64,000 bases of DNA from a virus: IMG/VR virus record IMGVR_UViG_3300045988_080954; one strand, 5' to 3'. The position numbers and the translations under genes were made by a program. How positions within the stretch are numbered: position 1 is the stretch's first letter; each line of letters begins with the position of its first letter. A model generated the notes under the pieces. It saw only the letters and a program-made list of their open reading frames with translations. It was not told the DNA's origin and did not search any database. Below, piece by piece: positions 44,101-59,199 of this stretch.

Positions 44101-44310
44101 ATATAATCTAATGAGGTGATTGAATGGAAAAAGCTATTTTGATGGCAATAAATGAAAGACTTTACAAACTCGGATTGATTGATGAAGATACAAAAAACAA
44201 AGTAACTGCTGAAATTAATACTACAAAATAACAAAAAACTATTGAACGGAGCCGGAAAATGTGATTATAATAATTCTGACTCCGTTCCTTAGTTGGAAGG
44301 GAGAAAGTAT

Positions 44311-46026
44311 ATGAACATATATCATGCAAGAGAAACACTCAGAACGTGCTCTATTTACGATTTAAAGTTAAGAGTTGCATACTACGCAAGAGTCAGCACT
44401 GATCGAGCCGAACAGCAGGTGTCTATAAGCCACCAGACAGAGTATTTTGAAAATCTGATACGTTCAAATCCTAACTGGGAATTTGTGGGCGCATATGTGG
44501 ATGACGGAATTTCCGGAATGCACGCAGAAAAAAGAGAAGATTTTCAAAATATGCTTCGTGATGCAAAGGCTGGGAAAATTGATATGATTATCACGAAAGA
44601 AATATCCAGATTTGCCAGAAACACACTTGACAGTATAAAATATACAAGAGAATTGCTTTCATGTGGTGTATGCGTGTGGTTTCAGAACGACGGAATTAAC
44701 ACGATTGATGAAGACAGCGAGCTTCGATTGACCATCATGGCAGGTGTAGCTCAGGACGAGTTGAGAAAACTTTCAAGTCGTGTAAAATTCGGTCATGCCA
44801 GATCAATACAGAATGGCGTTGTGCTTGGAAACAGAATCTATGGATATAAGAAGAAGGACGGTAAACTCACTGTCATTCCAGAAGAAGCAGAAATGGTGCG
44901 TATGATATTCAGAGACTATGCAGCCGGCGTTTCGACTCCTAAAATTGAAAAAAAGCTCTGGGATATGGGGTACAGAAATTCTAAGGGAAGCAAAATTGAT
45001 AGGAATGTTATCAGACATATCATCAAGAATCCCAAATATAAAGGATACTTCTGCGGAGGAAAAGTGAAGATCGTAGACATGTTTACGAAGAAACAAGAGT
45101 TCATACCGGAATCCGAATGGATAATGTTCAAGGATGACGGAAGCCGAGTGCCACAGATTATAGATGAAGAGACATGGGAAAAAGCTAATCAGTATATGAC
45201 CATGCGTGGTGATGCCATAAAAACCAGAAGAACTTCATTTAAGAGTGAAAATCTCTTTACTGGAATGATTTTTTGCTCAAATGACAATGCACCATATTGG
45301 TTGAAACAACATTATATTAGGGGAAAAGAAGATGTGAGATGGGTGTGTAGTCATAAAATCAAGAATGGAGCTGCTTCTTGCAATTCGTTCGGAATCAAGG
45401 AATCGGAACTGAAAATAATGGTTTCCGACCTCATAAATGAATCATCGTGCAATATAGAAGAAGTCATAAAAAAATATCTGGAGTTGTTAAGAAGAGCTAT
45501 AGATAATAAACCTGATTCTAAAGCAGAGATTGACAGGCTTCAAAAGCAGATTGAGTCTATTAATAAAAAGAAAGAAAAAATTCTGGAATACAATCTTGAC
45601 GGTAATATTTCTGATGAGGAATTTATTCAGAGAAATAAGGGATACAATGAGCAAATCCAGAAATTAAATTCTCAAATTTCAGATTTAACGCCGAATCAAG
45701 ATGATTTTGTTTCAGCAGAAATGCAATTCAAAAACATAATTGATACTTTAAAGAAGTTTAACGGAGTTGAGTCAGAAGACATAAACAGGCAGATAGTAGA
45801 GGAACTTTTTGAAAAGATTGTAGTAAAATCGTTTGAAGGAAATAAGGCAACTTTAACTTTTTATTTGAAGACAGGAGAAGTAAAAAAAAAGCAAGTTAGC
45901 ATGAGTTGTTCTGAATACATGTTATTTAACATTATCCCCGAACGACACAAACGGTTTTATAGGAAAACTTGCATTTCTGGAGCGAGCGAAATTGCATTTA
46001 ACTATGAATATAGAATGGTAATCTAA
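44311..46026 (+). CDS. large serine recombinase (integrase-type, 571 aa)
   Basis: YYARVSTDRAEQQVSISHQ (catalytic Ser context), ITKEISRFARN and the resolvase core, followed by a recombinase domain, a Cys cluster and a C-terminal coiled coil. Confidence 0.9.
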   Translation: MNIYHARETLRTCSIYDLKLRVAYYARVSTDRAEQQVSISHQTEYFENLIRSNPNWEFVGAYVDDGISGMHAEKREDFQNMLRDAKAGKIDMIITKEISRFARNTLDSIKYTRELLSCGVCVWFQNDGINTIDEDSELRLTIMAGVAQDELRKLSSRVKFGHARSIQNGVVLGNRIYGYKKKDGKLTVIPEEAEMVRMIFRDYAAGVSTPKIEKKLWDMGYRNSKGSKIDRNVIRHIIKNPKYKGYFCGGKVKIVDMFTKKQEFIPESEWIMFKDDGSRVPQIIDEETWEKANQYMTMRGDAIKTRRTSFKSENLFTGMIFCSNDNAPYWLKQHYIRGKEDVRWVCSHKIKNGAASCNSFGIKESELKIMVSDLINESSCNIEEVIKKYLELLRRAIDNKPDSKAEIDRLQKQIESINKKKEKILEYNLDGNISDEEFIQRNKGYNEQIQKLNSQISDLTPNQDDFVSAEMQFKNIIDTLKKFNGVESEDINRQIVEELFEKIVVKSFEGNKATLTFYLKTGEVKKKQVSMSCSEYMLFNIIPERHKRFYRKTCISGASEIAFNYEYRMVI

Positions 46027-50818: not shown

Positions 50819-51102
50819 TTTTTAACCCTCCTGAGACTCAAAACAACATCGTCTTTCATGTCATAAGTACCGCGACTGTCGAACGTAATGACCACCGGTG
50901 CATTATTTTTTAGTCTTGCGTCAAATCCCCATTCTTCGCCGCGGATGTCGGTTACTGTCTGGGTTTTGCTGTGATATACGCCCGGCATCGTGTAGACGTT
51001 GGCGTTCTGCGGTGCGTGGGTGAGTGCGGCGATCATTGTCGCAATAATTAATTTCTTCATGGTTGTTTCCCTCTCTTTCCTATAATGAATTATATTTTTC
51101 AA
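50815..51102 (-). CDS. small secreted protein (95 aa; signal peptide from internal MKKLIIATMIAALTHA)
   Basis: Hydrophobic N-terminal signal-like segment. Confidence 0.5.
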   Translation of the reverse strand: MKNIIHYRKERETTMKKLIIATMIAALTHAPQNANVYTMPGVYHSKTQTVTDIRGEEWGFDARLKNNAPVVITFDSRGTYDMKDDVVLSLRRVKK

Positions 51103-51490
51103 GAATTTCTTTCGTGATTCTCGAATGTGTTTTACAGTGTCTGAATTTGTATCTATGAGCTATTTCGTGAGAAATTACACTCTCTAATGTTTCGGGCTCG
51201 ATGTCGAACCCACCGTTAAAAATAGACTCATATTTTTCATGAATGAAATAATTGTCAATTGTTATAAAACAATCGGCTTTCGGGCTTTCAGGGTCACTGG
51301 TATAAAAGAGTCCTAAGGCGTCTCTATTTCTTCGGGACATTTTTTCGTGATCTCGGTTTGTGATTTCCAGCCCATCAGTTTCTGGGAGTTTGTGAAACTT
51401 AGAAACTACGGAGAAAAACCAATGCAATTCGTCTGCGGTTAATTCAGTTTCGTTTCCGTAGAAATCTGTATATGTATTTCCAAACTTCAT
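51080..51490 (-). CDS. zinc metallopeptidase-like protein with HExxH (136 aa)
   Basis: VISHEIAHRYKFRHC. ATG at 51490 follows AAAGGAAA. Confidence 0.55.
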   Translation of the reverse strand: MKFGNTYTDFYGNETELTADELHWFFSVVSKFHKLPETDGLEITNRDHEKMSRRNRDALGLFYTSDPESPKADCFITIDNYFIHEKYESIFNGGFDIEPETLESVISHEIAHRYKFRHCKTHSRITKEILEKYNSL

Positions 51491-51566
51491 TTCGTTTCCT
51501 TTCTGCCCTGCCATCATCAGCACCGGGAGGGCGGTCCCGGTGGACGGTCATTTCTGACCGTTTCGG

Positions 51567-51770
51567 CTATCCGTTTATTACTGCATTCACGGTATCCCAT
51601 GCCTGTTGATAGCTTCTTAATACTTCTCCCTTGTGTGGACCTGTGGAAATAATGGTTCCCCACTTCGGAGTGCCGATTCTATCAGTTATCATTTTTTTAT
51701 CAGGCACATATTTCACTTTAAATATCCTGAGTGATTCCATTACGCATCGTTTATACTGTTTCTTTGTCAT
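51567..51770 (-). CDS. hypothetical protein (67 aa)
   Basis: ATG ORF, leftward operon. Confidence 0.5.
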   Translation of the reverse strand: MTKKQYKRCVMESLRIFKVKYVPDKKMITDRIGTPKWGTIISTGPHKGEVLRSYQQAWDTVNAVING

Positions 51771-56556: not shown

Positions 56557-56877
56557 ATGACAGAAGAATACAGTGAGCGTTTTGACCAGCTTCGCAAGAA
56601 TCGAGTCGAAGTAAGTTATCATAAATACGGGCCAGCTAGAAAGAATTATAAAACCGGGAACGTGCAGGCACTCCCGTCCATGGAACGATGTATTGAGAAA
56701 TATAATTCCACCGGAAACACAGAATATCTTGTAGATGCGGCAAATTACATCATGTTTGAGTTCATGTACCCGCAGCACCCTAAAGCACACTTCAAAGCCA
56801 CAGACAGCAAAGATAGCGCCGGGATAGTCGGAATCAGCGTAAAGGAAATGGAGGACTTGATGAATGAACAATACTAA
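56557..56877 (+). CDS. hypothetical protein, possibly MazG-like NTP pyrophosphohydrolase (106 aa)
   Basis: YHKYGP...GNTEYLVDAANYIMFEF resembles the all-alpha NTP-PPase pattern. Weak call. Confidence 0.4.
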   Translation: MTEEYSERFDQLRKNRVEVSYHKYGPARKNYKTGNVQALPSMERCIEKYNSTGNTEYLVDAANYIMFEFMYPQHPKAHFKATDSKDSAGIVGISVKEMEDLMNEQY

Positions 56878-57073
56878 CTCTGTAACTATTACGTACGCAG
56901 TAGCCGTTCTGAGACACGAACTTCTTACACATGGAGAAGTTTACAATGGTTTCAAAGCAAGCCTTAAAACAGCGATTGAGAAGTACTGTACATGCGGCCT
57001 GCCATTCGAGCCAGAAGACGAAACCGCCGGTAAGATTCTTGATTTCATGATCGGAGAGGAACAAAGAGAATGA
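56864..57073 (+). CDS. hypothetical protein (69 aa)
   Basis: Overlapping co-oriented ORF. Confidence 0.4.
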   Translation: MNNTNSVTITYAVAVLRHELLTHGEVYNGFKASLKTAIEKYCTCGLPFEPEDETAGKILDFMIGEEQRE

Positions 57074-57246
57074 TTTTAGCAAAAGTCGTAGCAGCCATGT
57101 TGGATATTGCATTTTTTACATTGGTTTTAGCATTTCTTATATCACAGGACGAAAACGAAAAGAAAAGCAATCCAATAGCATCAGCAGTATTTATATTGAT
57201 GGAAATATGTTTCGTGGTTAATGCAGTTGTGATTTTTAGATTATAA
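57070..57246 (+). CDS. small membrane protein (58 aa)
   Basis: Below the cutoff. ATGA overlap. Two hydrophobic segments. Confidence 0.4.
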   Translation: MILAKVVAAMLDIAFFTLVLAFLISQDENEKKSNPIASAVFILMEICFVVNAVVIFRL

Positions 57247-57256
57247 GGAGAACCCA

Positions 57257-57394
57257 ATGCGGTTAGCATTCACAATACAAATTCCCCTGTTCACCATACT
57301 GATTGAACGGGTGAAAATACAAGAAAATCAGAAGCCTGTCGTTCTCAGGTCTGGGAAAGCCTTTGAATCTGACAGGTCGAGGCATCCCGAGTAG
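57257..57394 (+). CDS. possible small protein (45 aa)
   Basis: Below the cutoff. AAGGAG lies 6 nt upstream. The sequence is also strongly self-complementary, so it could instead be the 5' part of the structured RNA locus. Confidence 0.3.
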   Translation: MRLAFTIQIPLFTILIERVKIQENQKPVVLRSGKAFESDRSRHPE

Positions 57395-57534
57395 CTTAGG
57401 TCTGCGTCAGTGAAATATAATTTCCCGAAGTAACTGGCGCGGACTTAACGATACAAATATAGACATGATGCTTTCTAAAATTTTATAAAATATATCACTC
57501 TATCACGAGTCCGGGGTGCTACCCGGACAAACAA

Positions 57535-57606
57535 TGGGCTATCGCCAAGTGGTAAGGCACAGCACTTTGACTGCTGTATTCGCGGGTTCGAATCCCGCTA
57601 GCCCAG
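57535..57606 (+). tRNA. tRNA-Gln (anticodon TTG)
   Basis: Hand-folded cloverleaf: TGGGCTA/TAGCCCA acceptor, CAGCA-CTTTGAC-TGCTG anticodon arm, GCGGG-TTCGAAT-CCCGC T-arm. Close by eye to E. coli tRNA-Gln. No encoded CCA. Confidence 0.85.
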
Positions 57607-57650
57607 TCGGACTATATTGTTTAGCCATGATATAGTTCCCCTCCAAAGGT

Positions 57651-57702
57651 TTCATCTATCCCAACGGGGATGACTAAAGGGGCTTCAAATGCCCCGGATG
57701 GA
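57651..57702 (+). ncRNA. tRNA-like element lacking one arm (52 nt)
   Basis: TTCATCT / GGATGGA acceptor-like stem (2 G-U pairs), ATCCC-AACG-GGGAT hairpin, GGGGC-TTCAAAT-GCCCC T-arm. Confidence 0.3.
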
Positions 57703-57824
57703 CTCTGCGAATATTGCAGAACAACGGTTTCATTTCAGATCAGACCCTTTGTTGCGACTGAGAGGGCATGAATCGCAACAGTAGAGGATGTTTACTCTTG
57801 AACTACAATGAGCACCTCTACTTA

Positions 57825-57898
57825 GGACATTTAGTTCAGTTGGTCAGAACGCCCGGCTCATAACCGGGTAGTCCGGGGTTCGAGTCCCTGAATGTCCA
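57825..57898 (+). tRNA. tRNA with CAT anticodon (elongator Met or Ile2)
   Basis: GGACATT/AATGTCC acceptor, GTTC/GAAC D-stem, CCCGG-CTCATAA-CCGGG, CGGGG-TTCGAGT-CCCTG. G1-C72 pair argues against an initiator. Confidence 0.85.
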
Positions 57899-58294
57899 TT
57901 TCTCCTGTACAATGCCACCCAAGCCGTTATCCGGGTGGAGAAACTTTTCAGAAGAACGATGTTGGAAATCATGATGACCACGATACGGCGTGTAGATCAC
58001 ATATTTCCATTTCCGTTTTCTGAAAGCATTTCAGAGTTTACGGGGTTGACGAACCCGGGAGTTTCAAGGAATGCAGGAATCCGATAACAATGGTTGTTAT
58101 ATTTCAAATCGACATGAATATCTCCGTGGAGCATACCACGGTTATCAAAAAGCCGTACAGTTATCAAGCCAGACGTTATCTACAAAAGGTTGGCGGCGCG
58201 CTCCTGTAAGCGTCGTGAGAAAAACAGGATAGTGGAAAGCATAAGCTAAGGCATAACACGATAAACATATTGCTAACCCGGGAATCCGGGTTCT

Positions 58295-58377
58295 GGGAGA
58301 ATATTCTGTAGAGGTAGCAGGGCTGACTGTAAATCAGTTGTTTAACGGCTCGGGTGGTTCGACTCCATCTTCTCCCA
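58295..58377 (+). tRNA. tRNA-Tyr (anticodon GTA), long variable arm
   Basis: GGGAGAA/TTCTCCC acceptor, GCTGA-CTGTAAA-TCAGT, GGTGG-TTCGACT-CCATC. D-stem is weak (G-U pairs). Confidence 0.7.
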
Positions 58378-58491
58378 TTCGCAGGGTAGAGAAGCGGCAT
58401 CTCGCAAGGCTCAGACTTATCGTCACAGTGGCTGAATATGGTTGCAAGTATGATGGATAAGGGGAAACCCTAATCATGTTTGAATAGTTGA

Positions 58492-58576
58492 GCTGACGTA
58501 CCGAAATGGTTATAACGGCGTAGTCTTGAAAACTAATGTGGTGAAAGCCCTGTAGGTTCGAATCCTACCGTCAGCG
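58492..58576 (+). tRNA. tRNA-Ser (anticodon TGA), long variable arm
   Basis: GCTGACG/CGTCAGC acceptor, CCG/CGG D-stem, TAGT-CTTGAAA-ACTA (27-43 mismatch), GTAGG-TTCGAAT-CCTAC. Confidence 0.7.
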
Positions 58577-58580
58577 TTAT

Positions 58581-58663
58581 GGTGCATTGCTGTAATGGTA
58601 TCAGAGTAGGTTGCTAACCTATCCAACAGAAATGTTGTACACGTTCGAATCGTGTATGCACCG
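58581..58663 (+). tRNA. tRNA-Ser (anticodon GCT), long variable arm
   Basis: GGTGCAT/ATGCACC acceptor, CTG/CAG D-stem, GTAGG-TTGCTAA-CCTAT, variable hairpin AACA-GAAA-TGTT, ACACG-TTCGAAT-CGTGT. Confidence 0.8.
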
Positions 58664-58715
58664 TTCCAATGAATTGCCATCATTGGAAACAGGTAATATC
58701 TGTACCGTTCCGACT

Positions 58716-58771
58716 CCAGTGTTTCTCGTTGGGAGATTTATGCCGTTCAAGTCGGCACACTGGATTTTTTT
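58716..58771 (+). ncRNA. tRNA-like element without an anticodon arm, doubling as the terminator of the tRNA cluster
   Basis: CCAGTGT/ACACTGG acceptor-like stem, CTC-GTTGG-GAG D-arm-like hairpin, GCCG-TTCAAGT-CGGC T-arm, then A and T7. Confidence 0.3.
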
Positions 58772-58787
58772 AATTGAGGTGTTAATT

Positions 58788-58937
58788 ATGCAAAAAGAAA
58801 AGTGTTGTAAAACATGTAGGAAACATGATGATTTTACATGGGTATGTTTCAACGGCGACAGTGAACACTGCGCTAATTTTACGGAACCAGATTGTGTTTG
58901 CGAATTTTGGGAGGACGCAGAAAATGAAAATTTATGA
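58788..58937 (+). CDS. small Cys-rich protein (49 aa)
   Basis: ATG at 58788 follows GAGGTG. The upstream part of the track ORF overlaps tRNA genes. CCKTCRKH...C...C...CVC. Confidence 0.45.
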   Translation: MQKEKCCKTCRKHDDFTWVCFNGDSEHCANFTEPDCVCEFWEDAENENL

Positions 58938-59199
58938 GGCAATATGTTTGAGAGATACATATGGTGGAGAAACGACTCTTGATGATCTTGTGAAACTAAT
59001 GCAAGGAAACAAAATTCACAGATGTCCGAAGTGCGGCGGAAGTGGAACTATTATCAAAAGAGTAAATCGTGCGCAATACTGGGAATGTTGTGCTGATTAC
59101 GTAGAAAAAGAAGTCACTTGCGACTTATGCAACGGCGAAGGGTATACTGAAAAAATATACAAACCTAGAATGGTACAGGATGGATGGGAATGCAAATAG
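58924..59199 (+). CDS. DnaJ-type CxxCxGxG zinc-finger protein (91 aa)
   Basis: CPKCGGSG and CDLCNGEG. Confidence 0.5.
   Translation: MKIYEAICLRDTYGGETTLDDLVKLMQGNKIHRCPKCGGSGTIIKRVNRAQYWECCADYVEKEVTCDLCNGEGYTEKIYKPRMVQDGWECK

Follow-up and report, generated by a model that had tools for sequence, protein, structure and literature searches.

What does a 1.4-kb stretch of phage DNA make when it carries transfer RNA (tRNA) genes but no protein gene? The stretch in question is positions 57395-58787 of a 64,000-nt piece, referred to as the window herein, of the IMG/VR virus record IMGVR_UViG_3300045988_080954. An earlier note made from the sequence alone had described a heavily structured locus with five embedded tRNAs, possibly one large, ornate RNA containing them, of the ROOL or GOLLD class or new. 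Our analysis instead resolves the locus into a string of separately closed RNA domains lying between tRNAs, in the order leader, tRNA-Gln, spacer 1, a tRNA with a CAT anticodon, spacer 2, tRNA-Tyr, a 113-nt scar, tRNA-Ser (tga), tRNA-Ser (gct) and a terminator-like stem. We consider it probable that this is the tRNA island of an uncultured ~77-kb phage of the human gut, a protein-free operon that would most likely be made as a single precursor and cut by host tRNA-processing enzymes. Comparison of homologous sequences identifies spacers 1 and 2 as conserved, covarying predicted RNAs that are unrelated to ROOL and fall outside Rfam 15.

ARAGORN called exactly five tRNA genes across the window, all on the + strand and all inside 57395-58787, and the Rfam tRNA model (RF00005) confirmed every one of them at 33.6-71.8 bits. 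These are tRNA-Gln (ttg) at 57535-57606 (67.3 bits), a tRNA with a CAT anticodon (Met or Ile2; tRNA-CAT herein) at 57825-57898 (71.8 bits), tRNA-Tyr (gta) at 58294-58378 (33.6 bits), which keeps its position in relatives, tRNA-Ser (tga) at 58492-58576 (51.4 bits), which in relatives starts on the base directly after ROOL, and tRNA-Ser (gct) at 58580-58664 (53.0 bits). All five identities had been proposed beforehand, and the spacings proposed with them (218, 396, 114 and 4 nt) need only an off-by-one correction, as the measured gaps are 218, 395, 113 and 3 nt. The claim that the interval lacks a credible open reading frame (ORF) also holds: none exceeds 74 amino acids (aa), and the longest run antisense across the tRNA genes. 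Coding spacers were rejected on the same grounds, together with insertions and deletions of 1-2 nt among relatives, which break the frame and thus argue against coding sequence.

We judged excess structure by folding-energy z-scores against dinucleotide-preserving shuffles. The description of the locus as heavily structured is accurate for the leader, spacer 1, spacer 2 and the trailer (z = -5.41 to -3.17) and inaccurate for the 113-nt Tyr-Ser gap, whose fold is no more stable than that of shuffled sequence (z = +0.14). The perfect hairpins listed for the locus all exist, give or take one base: TGTTGCGA/TCGCAACA (57750-57757 with 57773-57780), AGTAGAGG/CCTCTACT (57780-57787 with 57815-57822), CCACCC/GGGTGG (57915-57920 with 57933-57938), ATAACAA/TTGTTAT (58084 and 58094), CCGTGG/CCACGG (58124 and 58136) and AACCCGG/CCGGGTT (58275-58281 with 58286-58292). 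A further pairing joins TTTTCAGAA at 57945 to TTCTGAAA at 58018.

Scanned against Rfam 15, each alone and with laxer filters, spacers 1 and 2 matched no family. Across the whole locus, matches beyond the tRNAs and a weak ROOL hit were noise (E > 0.3), and GOLLD, HEARO and raiA, the other classes that the earlier note had wished to see scanned, gave no hit even at E <= 10 over 56800-59000. Relatives were collected by two routes: the 106-aa protein encoded upstream (56557-56877) led to 80 IMG/VR loci of a ~77-kb gut phage family at 91-97% aa identity, and a pattern derived from the matched ROOL tail led to 82 further DNA stretches (contigs are given L numbers herein). One module is constant in the tRNA maps of these relatives, namely Gln-ttg, a gap of ~200 nt, CAT and a gap of ~310-400 nt, while 3' of it Tyr, a second CAT, Thr, Ile, Ala, Arg, Trp and Ser are shuffled, with or without ROOL; the module Gln-spacer 1-CAT-spacer 2 is kept in more than 80 contigs. 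Spacers without conservation or covariation in related phages had been named as the outcome that would speak against a structured RNA, and both long spacers proved to be conserved and to covary. As invariant G-U pairs occur in both (U:G in 55 of 55 spacer 1 sequences, GU or UG in 25 of 25 spacer 2 sequences), the fold belongs to the + strand. Beyond this lineage, blastn against 50,697 phage records matched the tRNAs only, and the exact spacer 1 core or array-leader pattern (see below) had no match in 185,579 species-representative genomes. The spacers' motifs may already be listed in the PMC10690425 catalogue, which has 10,006 unnamed viral candidate RNAs.

Spacer 1 (57607-57824, + strand) is a conserved, predicted structured RNA of ~200 nt, as judged from homologues, covariation and fold energy. 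Homologues were found at 87 loci, 55 of them unique in sequence, and the fold is more stable than expected (z = -3.37), with none of 200 shuffles equally stable. RNAalifold proposed 30 pairs, 11 of which are compensatory. A structure refined by hand to 36 pairs has 99.0% of its cells paired, compared with 40-49% when the partners are slid, and double changes occur in 12 pairs, compared with 0-2 in the slid controls; over all evaluations the values span 99.0-99.3% of cells and 11-12 compensatory pairs. Two hairpins are too variable to align, yet of their distinct variants 15 of 16 and 29 of 30 hold both position and pairing. The RNA comprises a 5' hairpin (57609-57638), the tRNA-like junction described below, a variable hairpin (57704-57720), a 7-bp hairpin GUUGCGA/UCGCAAC (57751-57779), three pairs of which covary, and a terminal stem AGUAGAGG/CCUCUACU (57780-57822), which has four such pairs and ends 2 nt before tRNA-CAT; a candidate pseudoknot would pair CCCUU (57745-57749) with GAGGG (57762-57766). 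Searches for wider homologues by pattern scan of IMG/VR saturated within the same lineage, and nhmmer with spacer 1 returned its own lineage and, outside it, only weak matches (E ~1e-3) to the tRNA-like part.

The tRNA-like part is a three-way junction at 57651-57702 on the + strand, supported by folding and covariation. A 7-bp acceptor-like stem (57651-57657 with 57696-57702) encloses a mini-hairpin of 5 bp and a 4-nt loop (57658-57671), then a 7-nt linker, then a perfect T-arm look-alike of textbook form, GGGGC-UUCAAAU-GCCCC (57679-57695), and the 3' strand of the acceptor-like stem follows the T-arm directly, as in a tRNA. The junction thus has the 7-bp acceptor, 5-bp T stem and 7-nt UUCRANY loop expected of a tRNA. 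Folded in isolation, 57651-57702 adopts exactly this shape (-19.4 kcal/mol). Across homologues its three helices are 97.7-98.9% paired: the pair corresponding to 1:72 is UA, AU or CG, a T-stem pair is GC, GU or AU, and the mini-hairpin covaries between AUCCC/GGGAU and AGCUC/GAGCU. Where a tRNA has its D arm and its anticodon arm with a 7-nt loop, the junction has only the single 5-bp hairpin with its 4-nt loop; it drew no call from ARAGORN and no hit to the Rfam tRNA clan at E <= 10. As a separate observation, three contigs of other phage families, L277, L284 and L275 (IMG/VR 3300045988_011626, _023116 and _018280), hold 386-605 nt between Gln-ttg and the array-leader motif. By eye, this interval contains tRNA-like 'shells', made of an acceptor-like stem and a GAGG-UUCAAAU-CCUC T-arm around variable non-tRNA interiors, which recall the spacer 1 junction.

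Spacer 2 (57899-58293, + strand) is likewise a conserved, predicted structured RNA by homologues, covariation and fold energy. It always lies directly 3' of tRNA-CAT, measures 290-399 nt in relatives and is represented by 56 unique homologues. Its fold has z = -3.17, with none of 100 shuffles equally stable; RNAalifold proposed 33 pairs, 13 of them compensatory, with 95.5% of cells paired and a covariation score of 0.263 versus 0.019-0.133 for slid controls. Among its helices are CUCC (57902-57905) with GGAG (58058-58061), CCACCC/GGGUGG (57915-57938), UUUUCAGAA/UUCUGAAA (57945-58025), CACG/CGUG with the loop AUACGG (57979-57992) and UCCUGU/ACAGGA (58202-58229); one supported helix spans a long range and encloses a 5' domain. 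The spacer 2 of the window also carries a private insertion of ~60-90 nt, around 58142-58230.

The last ~70 nt of spacer 2 (58224-58293, + strand) form a motif that we call the array-leader. It consists, in order, of a variable helix, UAGUGG, a GCA...UGC pairing that closes the conserved loop UAACACGAUAAACAUAU at 58251-58273 (UAACACGAUAAAC...), and a hairpin UAACCCGG/CCGGGUU(A) at 58274-58292 (3' strand CCGGGUUA), which ends 1-3 nt before tRNA-Tyr. We collected 89 unique sequences of the motif, 55 of which are contigs of other phage families (22-62 kb). In those families the end of the search pattern is 15-16 nt from the first tRNA of an array downstream, or the motif precedes a tRNA-CAT by ~138 nt; most of these contigs have it just ahead of an array's first tRNA. 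In the hairpin, the three uppermost pairs covary, with CG/GC seen in 11 of 26 sequences. The block as a whole has an invariant P2 helix and a primary sequence that barely changes across phage families, and it marks the exact boundary between the conserved and the shuffled segments. In another group of ROOL phages, RAGATH-21 (RF03097) was found at 87-91 bits (L098:8326-8401; L089:3488-3563, - strand; L096:3622-3698; L105:7836-7912, - strand) ~120 nt upstream of the array-leader and a tRNA-CAT/ROOL cassette, a recurrent arrangement. RAGATH-21 is absent from the window, where spacer 2 takes its position.

Is there, then, a ROOL RNA at this locus? The Rfam ROOL model (RF03087) hit 58098-58491 at 35.2 bits (E = 6.5e-5), below the gathering score of 99.1 bits, so that the window does not count as a ROOL member at that score. 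High posterior probability was confined to 58409-58491, the last ~85 nt, the rest being deletions and low-confidence columns, and the forced alignment placed tRNA-Tyr on ROOL positions. The relative L128 (IMGVR_UViG_3300029245_000058), colinear with the window, explains the hit. At the Rfam gathering threshold it contains a 72-nt tRNA (1140-1211), a full ROOL of 544 nt (1205-1748; 383 bits), a tRNA-Ser (1749-1833) and a second tRNA-Ser (1838-1920), and the relatives L149 and L076 share the layout tRNA-CAT, ROOL (381 and 377 bits), tRNA-Ser (tga). By blastn, window 57250-58413 aligns with L128 58-1173, and window 58406-58793 with L128 1663-2051 (97% identity), so that 489 nt of L128 (1174-1662) are missing from the window. 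The two segments overlap in an 8-nt microhomology, AAGGCTCA, at 58406-58413 on the + strand, and the window reads GCAGGGTAGAGAAGCGGCATCTCGCAAGGCTCA up to the junction and GACTTATCGTCACAGTGGCTGAATA after it. In the intact relatives this octamer occurs once in the tRNA anticodon arm, as CGCAAGGCUCAUAACC (CGCAAGGCTCATAACC) in L149 and L076, with U for the C of GGCUC in L128, and once in ROOL, as CCCGAAGGCUCAGACUUAUCG (CCCGAAGGCTCAGAC). The presence of AAGGCTCA in both parents is the signature of a microhomology-mediated deletion. Loss of 489 nt between its two copies would have removed the 3' half of the tRNA and ~84% of ROOL.

Both products of such a deletion are seen in the Tyr-Ser gap. The 5' half (33 nt) of a second tRNA(CAT) lies at 58381-58413 on the + strand, aligned with the intact tRNA of L128, L149 and L076; it is cut inside the anticodon, after its CA, and ends ...CUCA. 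The ROOL remnant, the last ~86 nt of the 544-nt RNA, lies at 58406-58491 on the + strand by nhmmer and blastn. A profile of 13 ROOLs matched the window with E = 1.4e-25 at profile positions 473-560 only, and the remnant is 93-99% identical to the ROOL tails of L076, L128, L149 and L105. Complete ROOL (RF03087; Weinberg et al. 2017, PMC5737381) was seen by cryo-electron microscopy as a homo-oligomeric nanocage (PMC12286853). The window resembles it in homology to its 3' end and in setting, a phage tRNA island next to tRNAs. It differs in that only ~16% of the molecule is left, including the hairpin GGGGAAACCC and, from the closing helix, the 3' strand. With the 5' partner strand deleted and no multistem junction or pseudoknot remaining, the remnant cannot be a working ROOL; nanocage assembly by an 86-nt fragment is implausible, and the relic would be a non-functional pseudogene. 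The suggestion of a ROOL- or GOLLD-type RNA therefore stands insofar as the locus has the slot of ROOL, filled in relatives and marked here by a sub-threshold hit, and falls insofar as it holds no functional ROOL or GOLLD.

Across relatives ROOL scored 375-395 bits. It was present in one of the 80 closest relatives (L076), which makes it an optional cassette in this lineage, and none of them has a remnant. Among 67 full-length IMG/VR ROOLs (L076-L160), 37 have a tRNA directly against the 5' end and 22 have one against each end, and nearly all the remainder have tRNAs within ~200 nt. The tRNA pairs that recurrently flank ROOL are CAT/Ser and Trp/Asn, with Lys or Gly also found on the 5' side. 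The tRNA-Gln of the constant module has a rearrangement of its own in some relatives: at L001:6530-7183, and also in L004, L005, L033, L044, L069, L075, L076 and L149, the homologue of window 57535-57606 is split in the anticodon stem by an insertion of ~590 nt, after which its orphaned 3' 42 nt follow. Within the insertion lie genes for a 161-aa HNH-type homing-endonuclease-like protein and for a different, complete tRNA-Gln(ttg); it resembles a mobile cassette, which would disrupt the tRNA already present and bring a substitute for it.

How might this string of RNAs be released? ROOL and GOLLD occur near phage tRNA islands and are possibly co-transcribed with the tRNAs (PMC5737381, PMC12286853). 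That ROOL is bounded base for base by tRNAs in many phages suggests excision by tRNA processing, and offers a concrete, testable model of its maturation. In the model we propose, the units would be co-transcribed as one precursor, RNase P would cut at the 5' end of each tRNA, and RNase Z or exonucleases would trim each 3' end, releasing the tRNAs, the spacer RNAs and, in relatives, ROOL as discrete stable species. The terminal helices of the spacers, which abut tRNAs within 1-3 nt, would protect the new ends, and the tRNA-like junction of spacer 1 might itself be recognized by tRNA-handling enzymes. The coaxial minihelix of acceptor and T-arm is a recognition feature for RNase P, RNase Z and the CCA-adding enzyme. 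More tentatively, and with less confidence than we place in a processed precursor, spacers 1 and 2 and the array-leader could be new classes of structured phage RNA freed by tRNA punctuation, the junction being a working tRNA mimic and not a fossil. Were that so, RNase P, RNase Z, the CCA-adding enzyme or further factors that bind tRNA could act on the junction as a substrate or be drawn to it as a decoy. The tRNA island would then serve phages as a general platform for launching non-coding RNAs, and ROOL would be one of its exchangeable cargoes.

Several of our own results weigh against this picture. The covariation comes from a single narrow, recombining lineage of ~13 clusters at <93% identity, so the cells counted greatly outnumber the independent events, and the spacer 1 pseudoknot is backed by one compensatory change. 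Since a simple consensus scan found no + strand sigma-70 promoter or intrinsic terminator, the limits of the transcription unit are guessed. In addition, as the 24-mer spanning the deletion junction is absent from all other IMG/VR and JGI metagenome contigs, the loss of ROOL would be private to a single genome, or could have arisen in assembly. It is conceivable that spacers 1 and 2 are functionless, either decayed tRNAs or ornate RNAs or simple processing or stability spacers, and owe their conservation to close kinship; should they prove to be no more than spacers for processing, what remains is an ordinary phage tRNA array plus a ROOL pseudogene. The locus does gather relics (the half tRNA, the ROOL tail and, in relatives, the orphaned tRNA-Gln halves), the junction could derive from a tRNA minus its anticodon arm, and full-length homologues are limited to one lineage. 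We nevertheless think decay unlikely, as 12 pairs of spacer 1 and 13 of spacer 2 stay paired despite double substitutions, hairpins with wholly replaced sequence retain their place and pairing, the true relic has z = +0.14 versus -3.4 and -3.2 for the spacers, and the Gln-spacer 1-CAT-spacer 2 module persists while the tRNAs downstream of it shuffle. We give a slightly smaller chance to the idea that the conserved blocks, chiefly the array-leader, act at the level of DNA or transcription, as promoters, attenuators, antiterminators or anchors for recombination of tRNA/ROOL cassettes. The near-invariance of the array-leader across families, its unvarying P2 helix and its place at the conserved/shuffled boundary would fit such a role. 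Long untranslated operons, such as those for ribosomal RNA, also generally need protection from Rho-dependent termination. However, the simple scan found no sigma-70-type promoter, the adjoining hairpin covaries (the CG/GC exchanges noted above), and the upstream helix changes sequence and keeps its pairing. This covariation and kept pairing point to a constraint at the RNA level, where an antiterminator RNA would also act; the array-leader may work either as a DNA signal or as an RNA, in the latter case as a leader or as an element for processing or antitermination.

The remaining alternatives concern the ROOL hit. If 58098-58491 were a functional, miniaturized ROOL-like RNA of ~394 nt with tRNA-Tyr embedded in it, the cmscan alignment of ROOL model positions 1-574 to this interval at E = 6.5e-5 would be accounted for, and a 5'/3' pairing of UUCAAA..CAUG with CAUG..UUUGAA could close it. 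This is highly improbable, given the sub-threshold score, the deleted or low-probability state of most model segments and the confinement of the nhmmer match to the end of the profile. Moreover, the homologue of 58098-58405 in relatives sits upstream of a separate tRNA-CAT and a complete ROOL, and so is not ROOL sequence. We rejected the mini-ROOL as an artefact of forced global alignment, largely refuted by synteny. There is also a small chance that the joining of the tRNA half to the ROOL tail is an assembly or sequencing artefact and that the real phage has an intact ROOL; the uniqueness of the junction 24-mer would suit it. Against this, an 8-nt repeat is far too short for assembly collapse, both flanks are colinear with relatives, and most relatives are without ROOL, so its loss is common in the lineage. 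The reading we prefer, a processed tRNA island with two conserved spacer RNAs and a ROOL deletion scar, would make this lineage useful in two respects. Near-isogenic natural phages with ROOL intact (L128, L149, L076), freshly deleted (the window) or absent (most) would allow fitness comparisons, and two or three extra conserved folds outside Rfam 15, one of them a tRNA look-alike lacking an anticodon, suggest that tRNA islands hold non-coding cargo beyond tRNAs, ROOL and GOLLD. ROOL and GOLLD are striking RNA nanocages that have so far been linked only to a location near tRNA islands.

Other systems offer partial parallels. The cluster of tRNA genes in phage T4 includes stable RNAs, species 1 and 2 (rnaC/rnaD), interleaved with the tRNAs and matured from the same precursors; the phage, host and sequences differ from those here, and the spacers here are larger (218 and 395 nt). 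Structures resembling tRNAs are processed as tRNAs in other settings, including mascRNA from MALAT1, the tRNA-like domain of transfer-messenger RNA (tmRNA) and the modules of the bacterial Y RNA YrlA. The spacer 1 junction is like these in that its acceptor-like stem of 7 bp would stack on a 5-bp stem bearing a UUCAAAU T-loop; it differs in having no anticodon arm, D arm or encoded CCA, and the Rfam tRNA, tmRNA and mascRNA models are silent on it. GOLLD (RF01998) is, like the RNAs considered here, tied to tRNA islands as a large phage RNA, and in some GOLLDs a linker holds tRNAs (PMC12286853), a feature close to the earlier note's idea of tRNAs within one large RNA. In contrast, spacers 1 and 2 share no detected similarity with GOLLD.

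At the 5' side of the island, the leader (57395-57534, + strand) has the lowest z-score of the locus (z = -5.41) and contains a long hairpin of ~16 bp (57396-57448) and a GC hairpin, GTCCGGG/CCCGGAC (57509-57528), whose end lies 6 nt ahead of tRNA-Gln. Relatives are 77-96% identical to window 57250-57562. A 45-aa ORF with a good AAGGAG ribosome-binding site (57257-57394) ends exactly at the start of the structured leader; it has no Pfam match, and its region shows the same 77-96% identity among relatives. At the 3' side, the trailer (58665-58775, + strand; -33.1 kcal/mol, z = -3.45) contains a 9-bp hairpin, UUCCAAUGA/UCAUUGGAA, at 58664-58688 and a branched stem, UCCAGUGU/ACACUGGA, at 58715-58764 with an 8-bp outer stem, followed by seven U at 58765-58771. 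The predicted stem with its U7 tract looks like an intrinsic terminator; it was found by folding, and the consensus scanner made no call because the loop exceeds 8 nt. The next gene begins at 58789.

Elsewhere in the window, the phage encodes a tyrosine integrase (PF00589, E = 2e-40) at 1934-2929 and a large serine recombinase with Resolvase, Recombinase and Zn ribbon domains at 44293-46026. A search with a structural protein placed distant Enterocloster bolteae phages as its nearest cultured relatives, and such distant protein hits make a Lachnospiraceae species the probable host. A type II hammerhead ribozyme (RF02276) lies on the - strand at 51502-51568, scoring 45 bits versus a gathering score of 37 (E = 5.6e-6), ~6 kb upstream of the tRNA island and near the end of the - strand ORF at 51080-51523.

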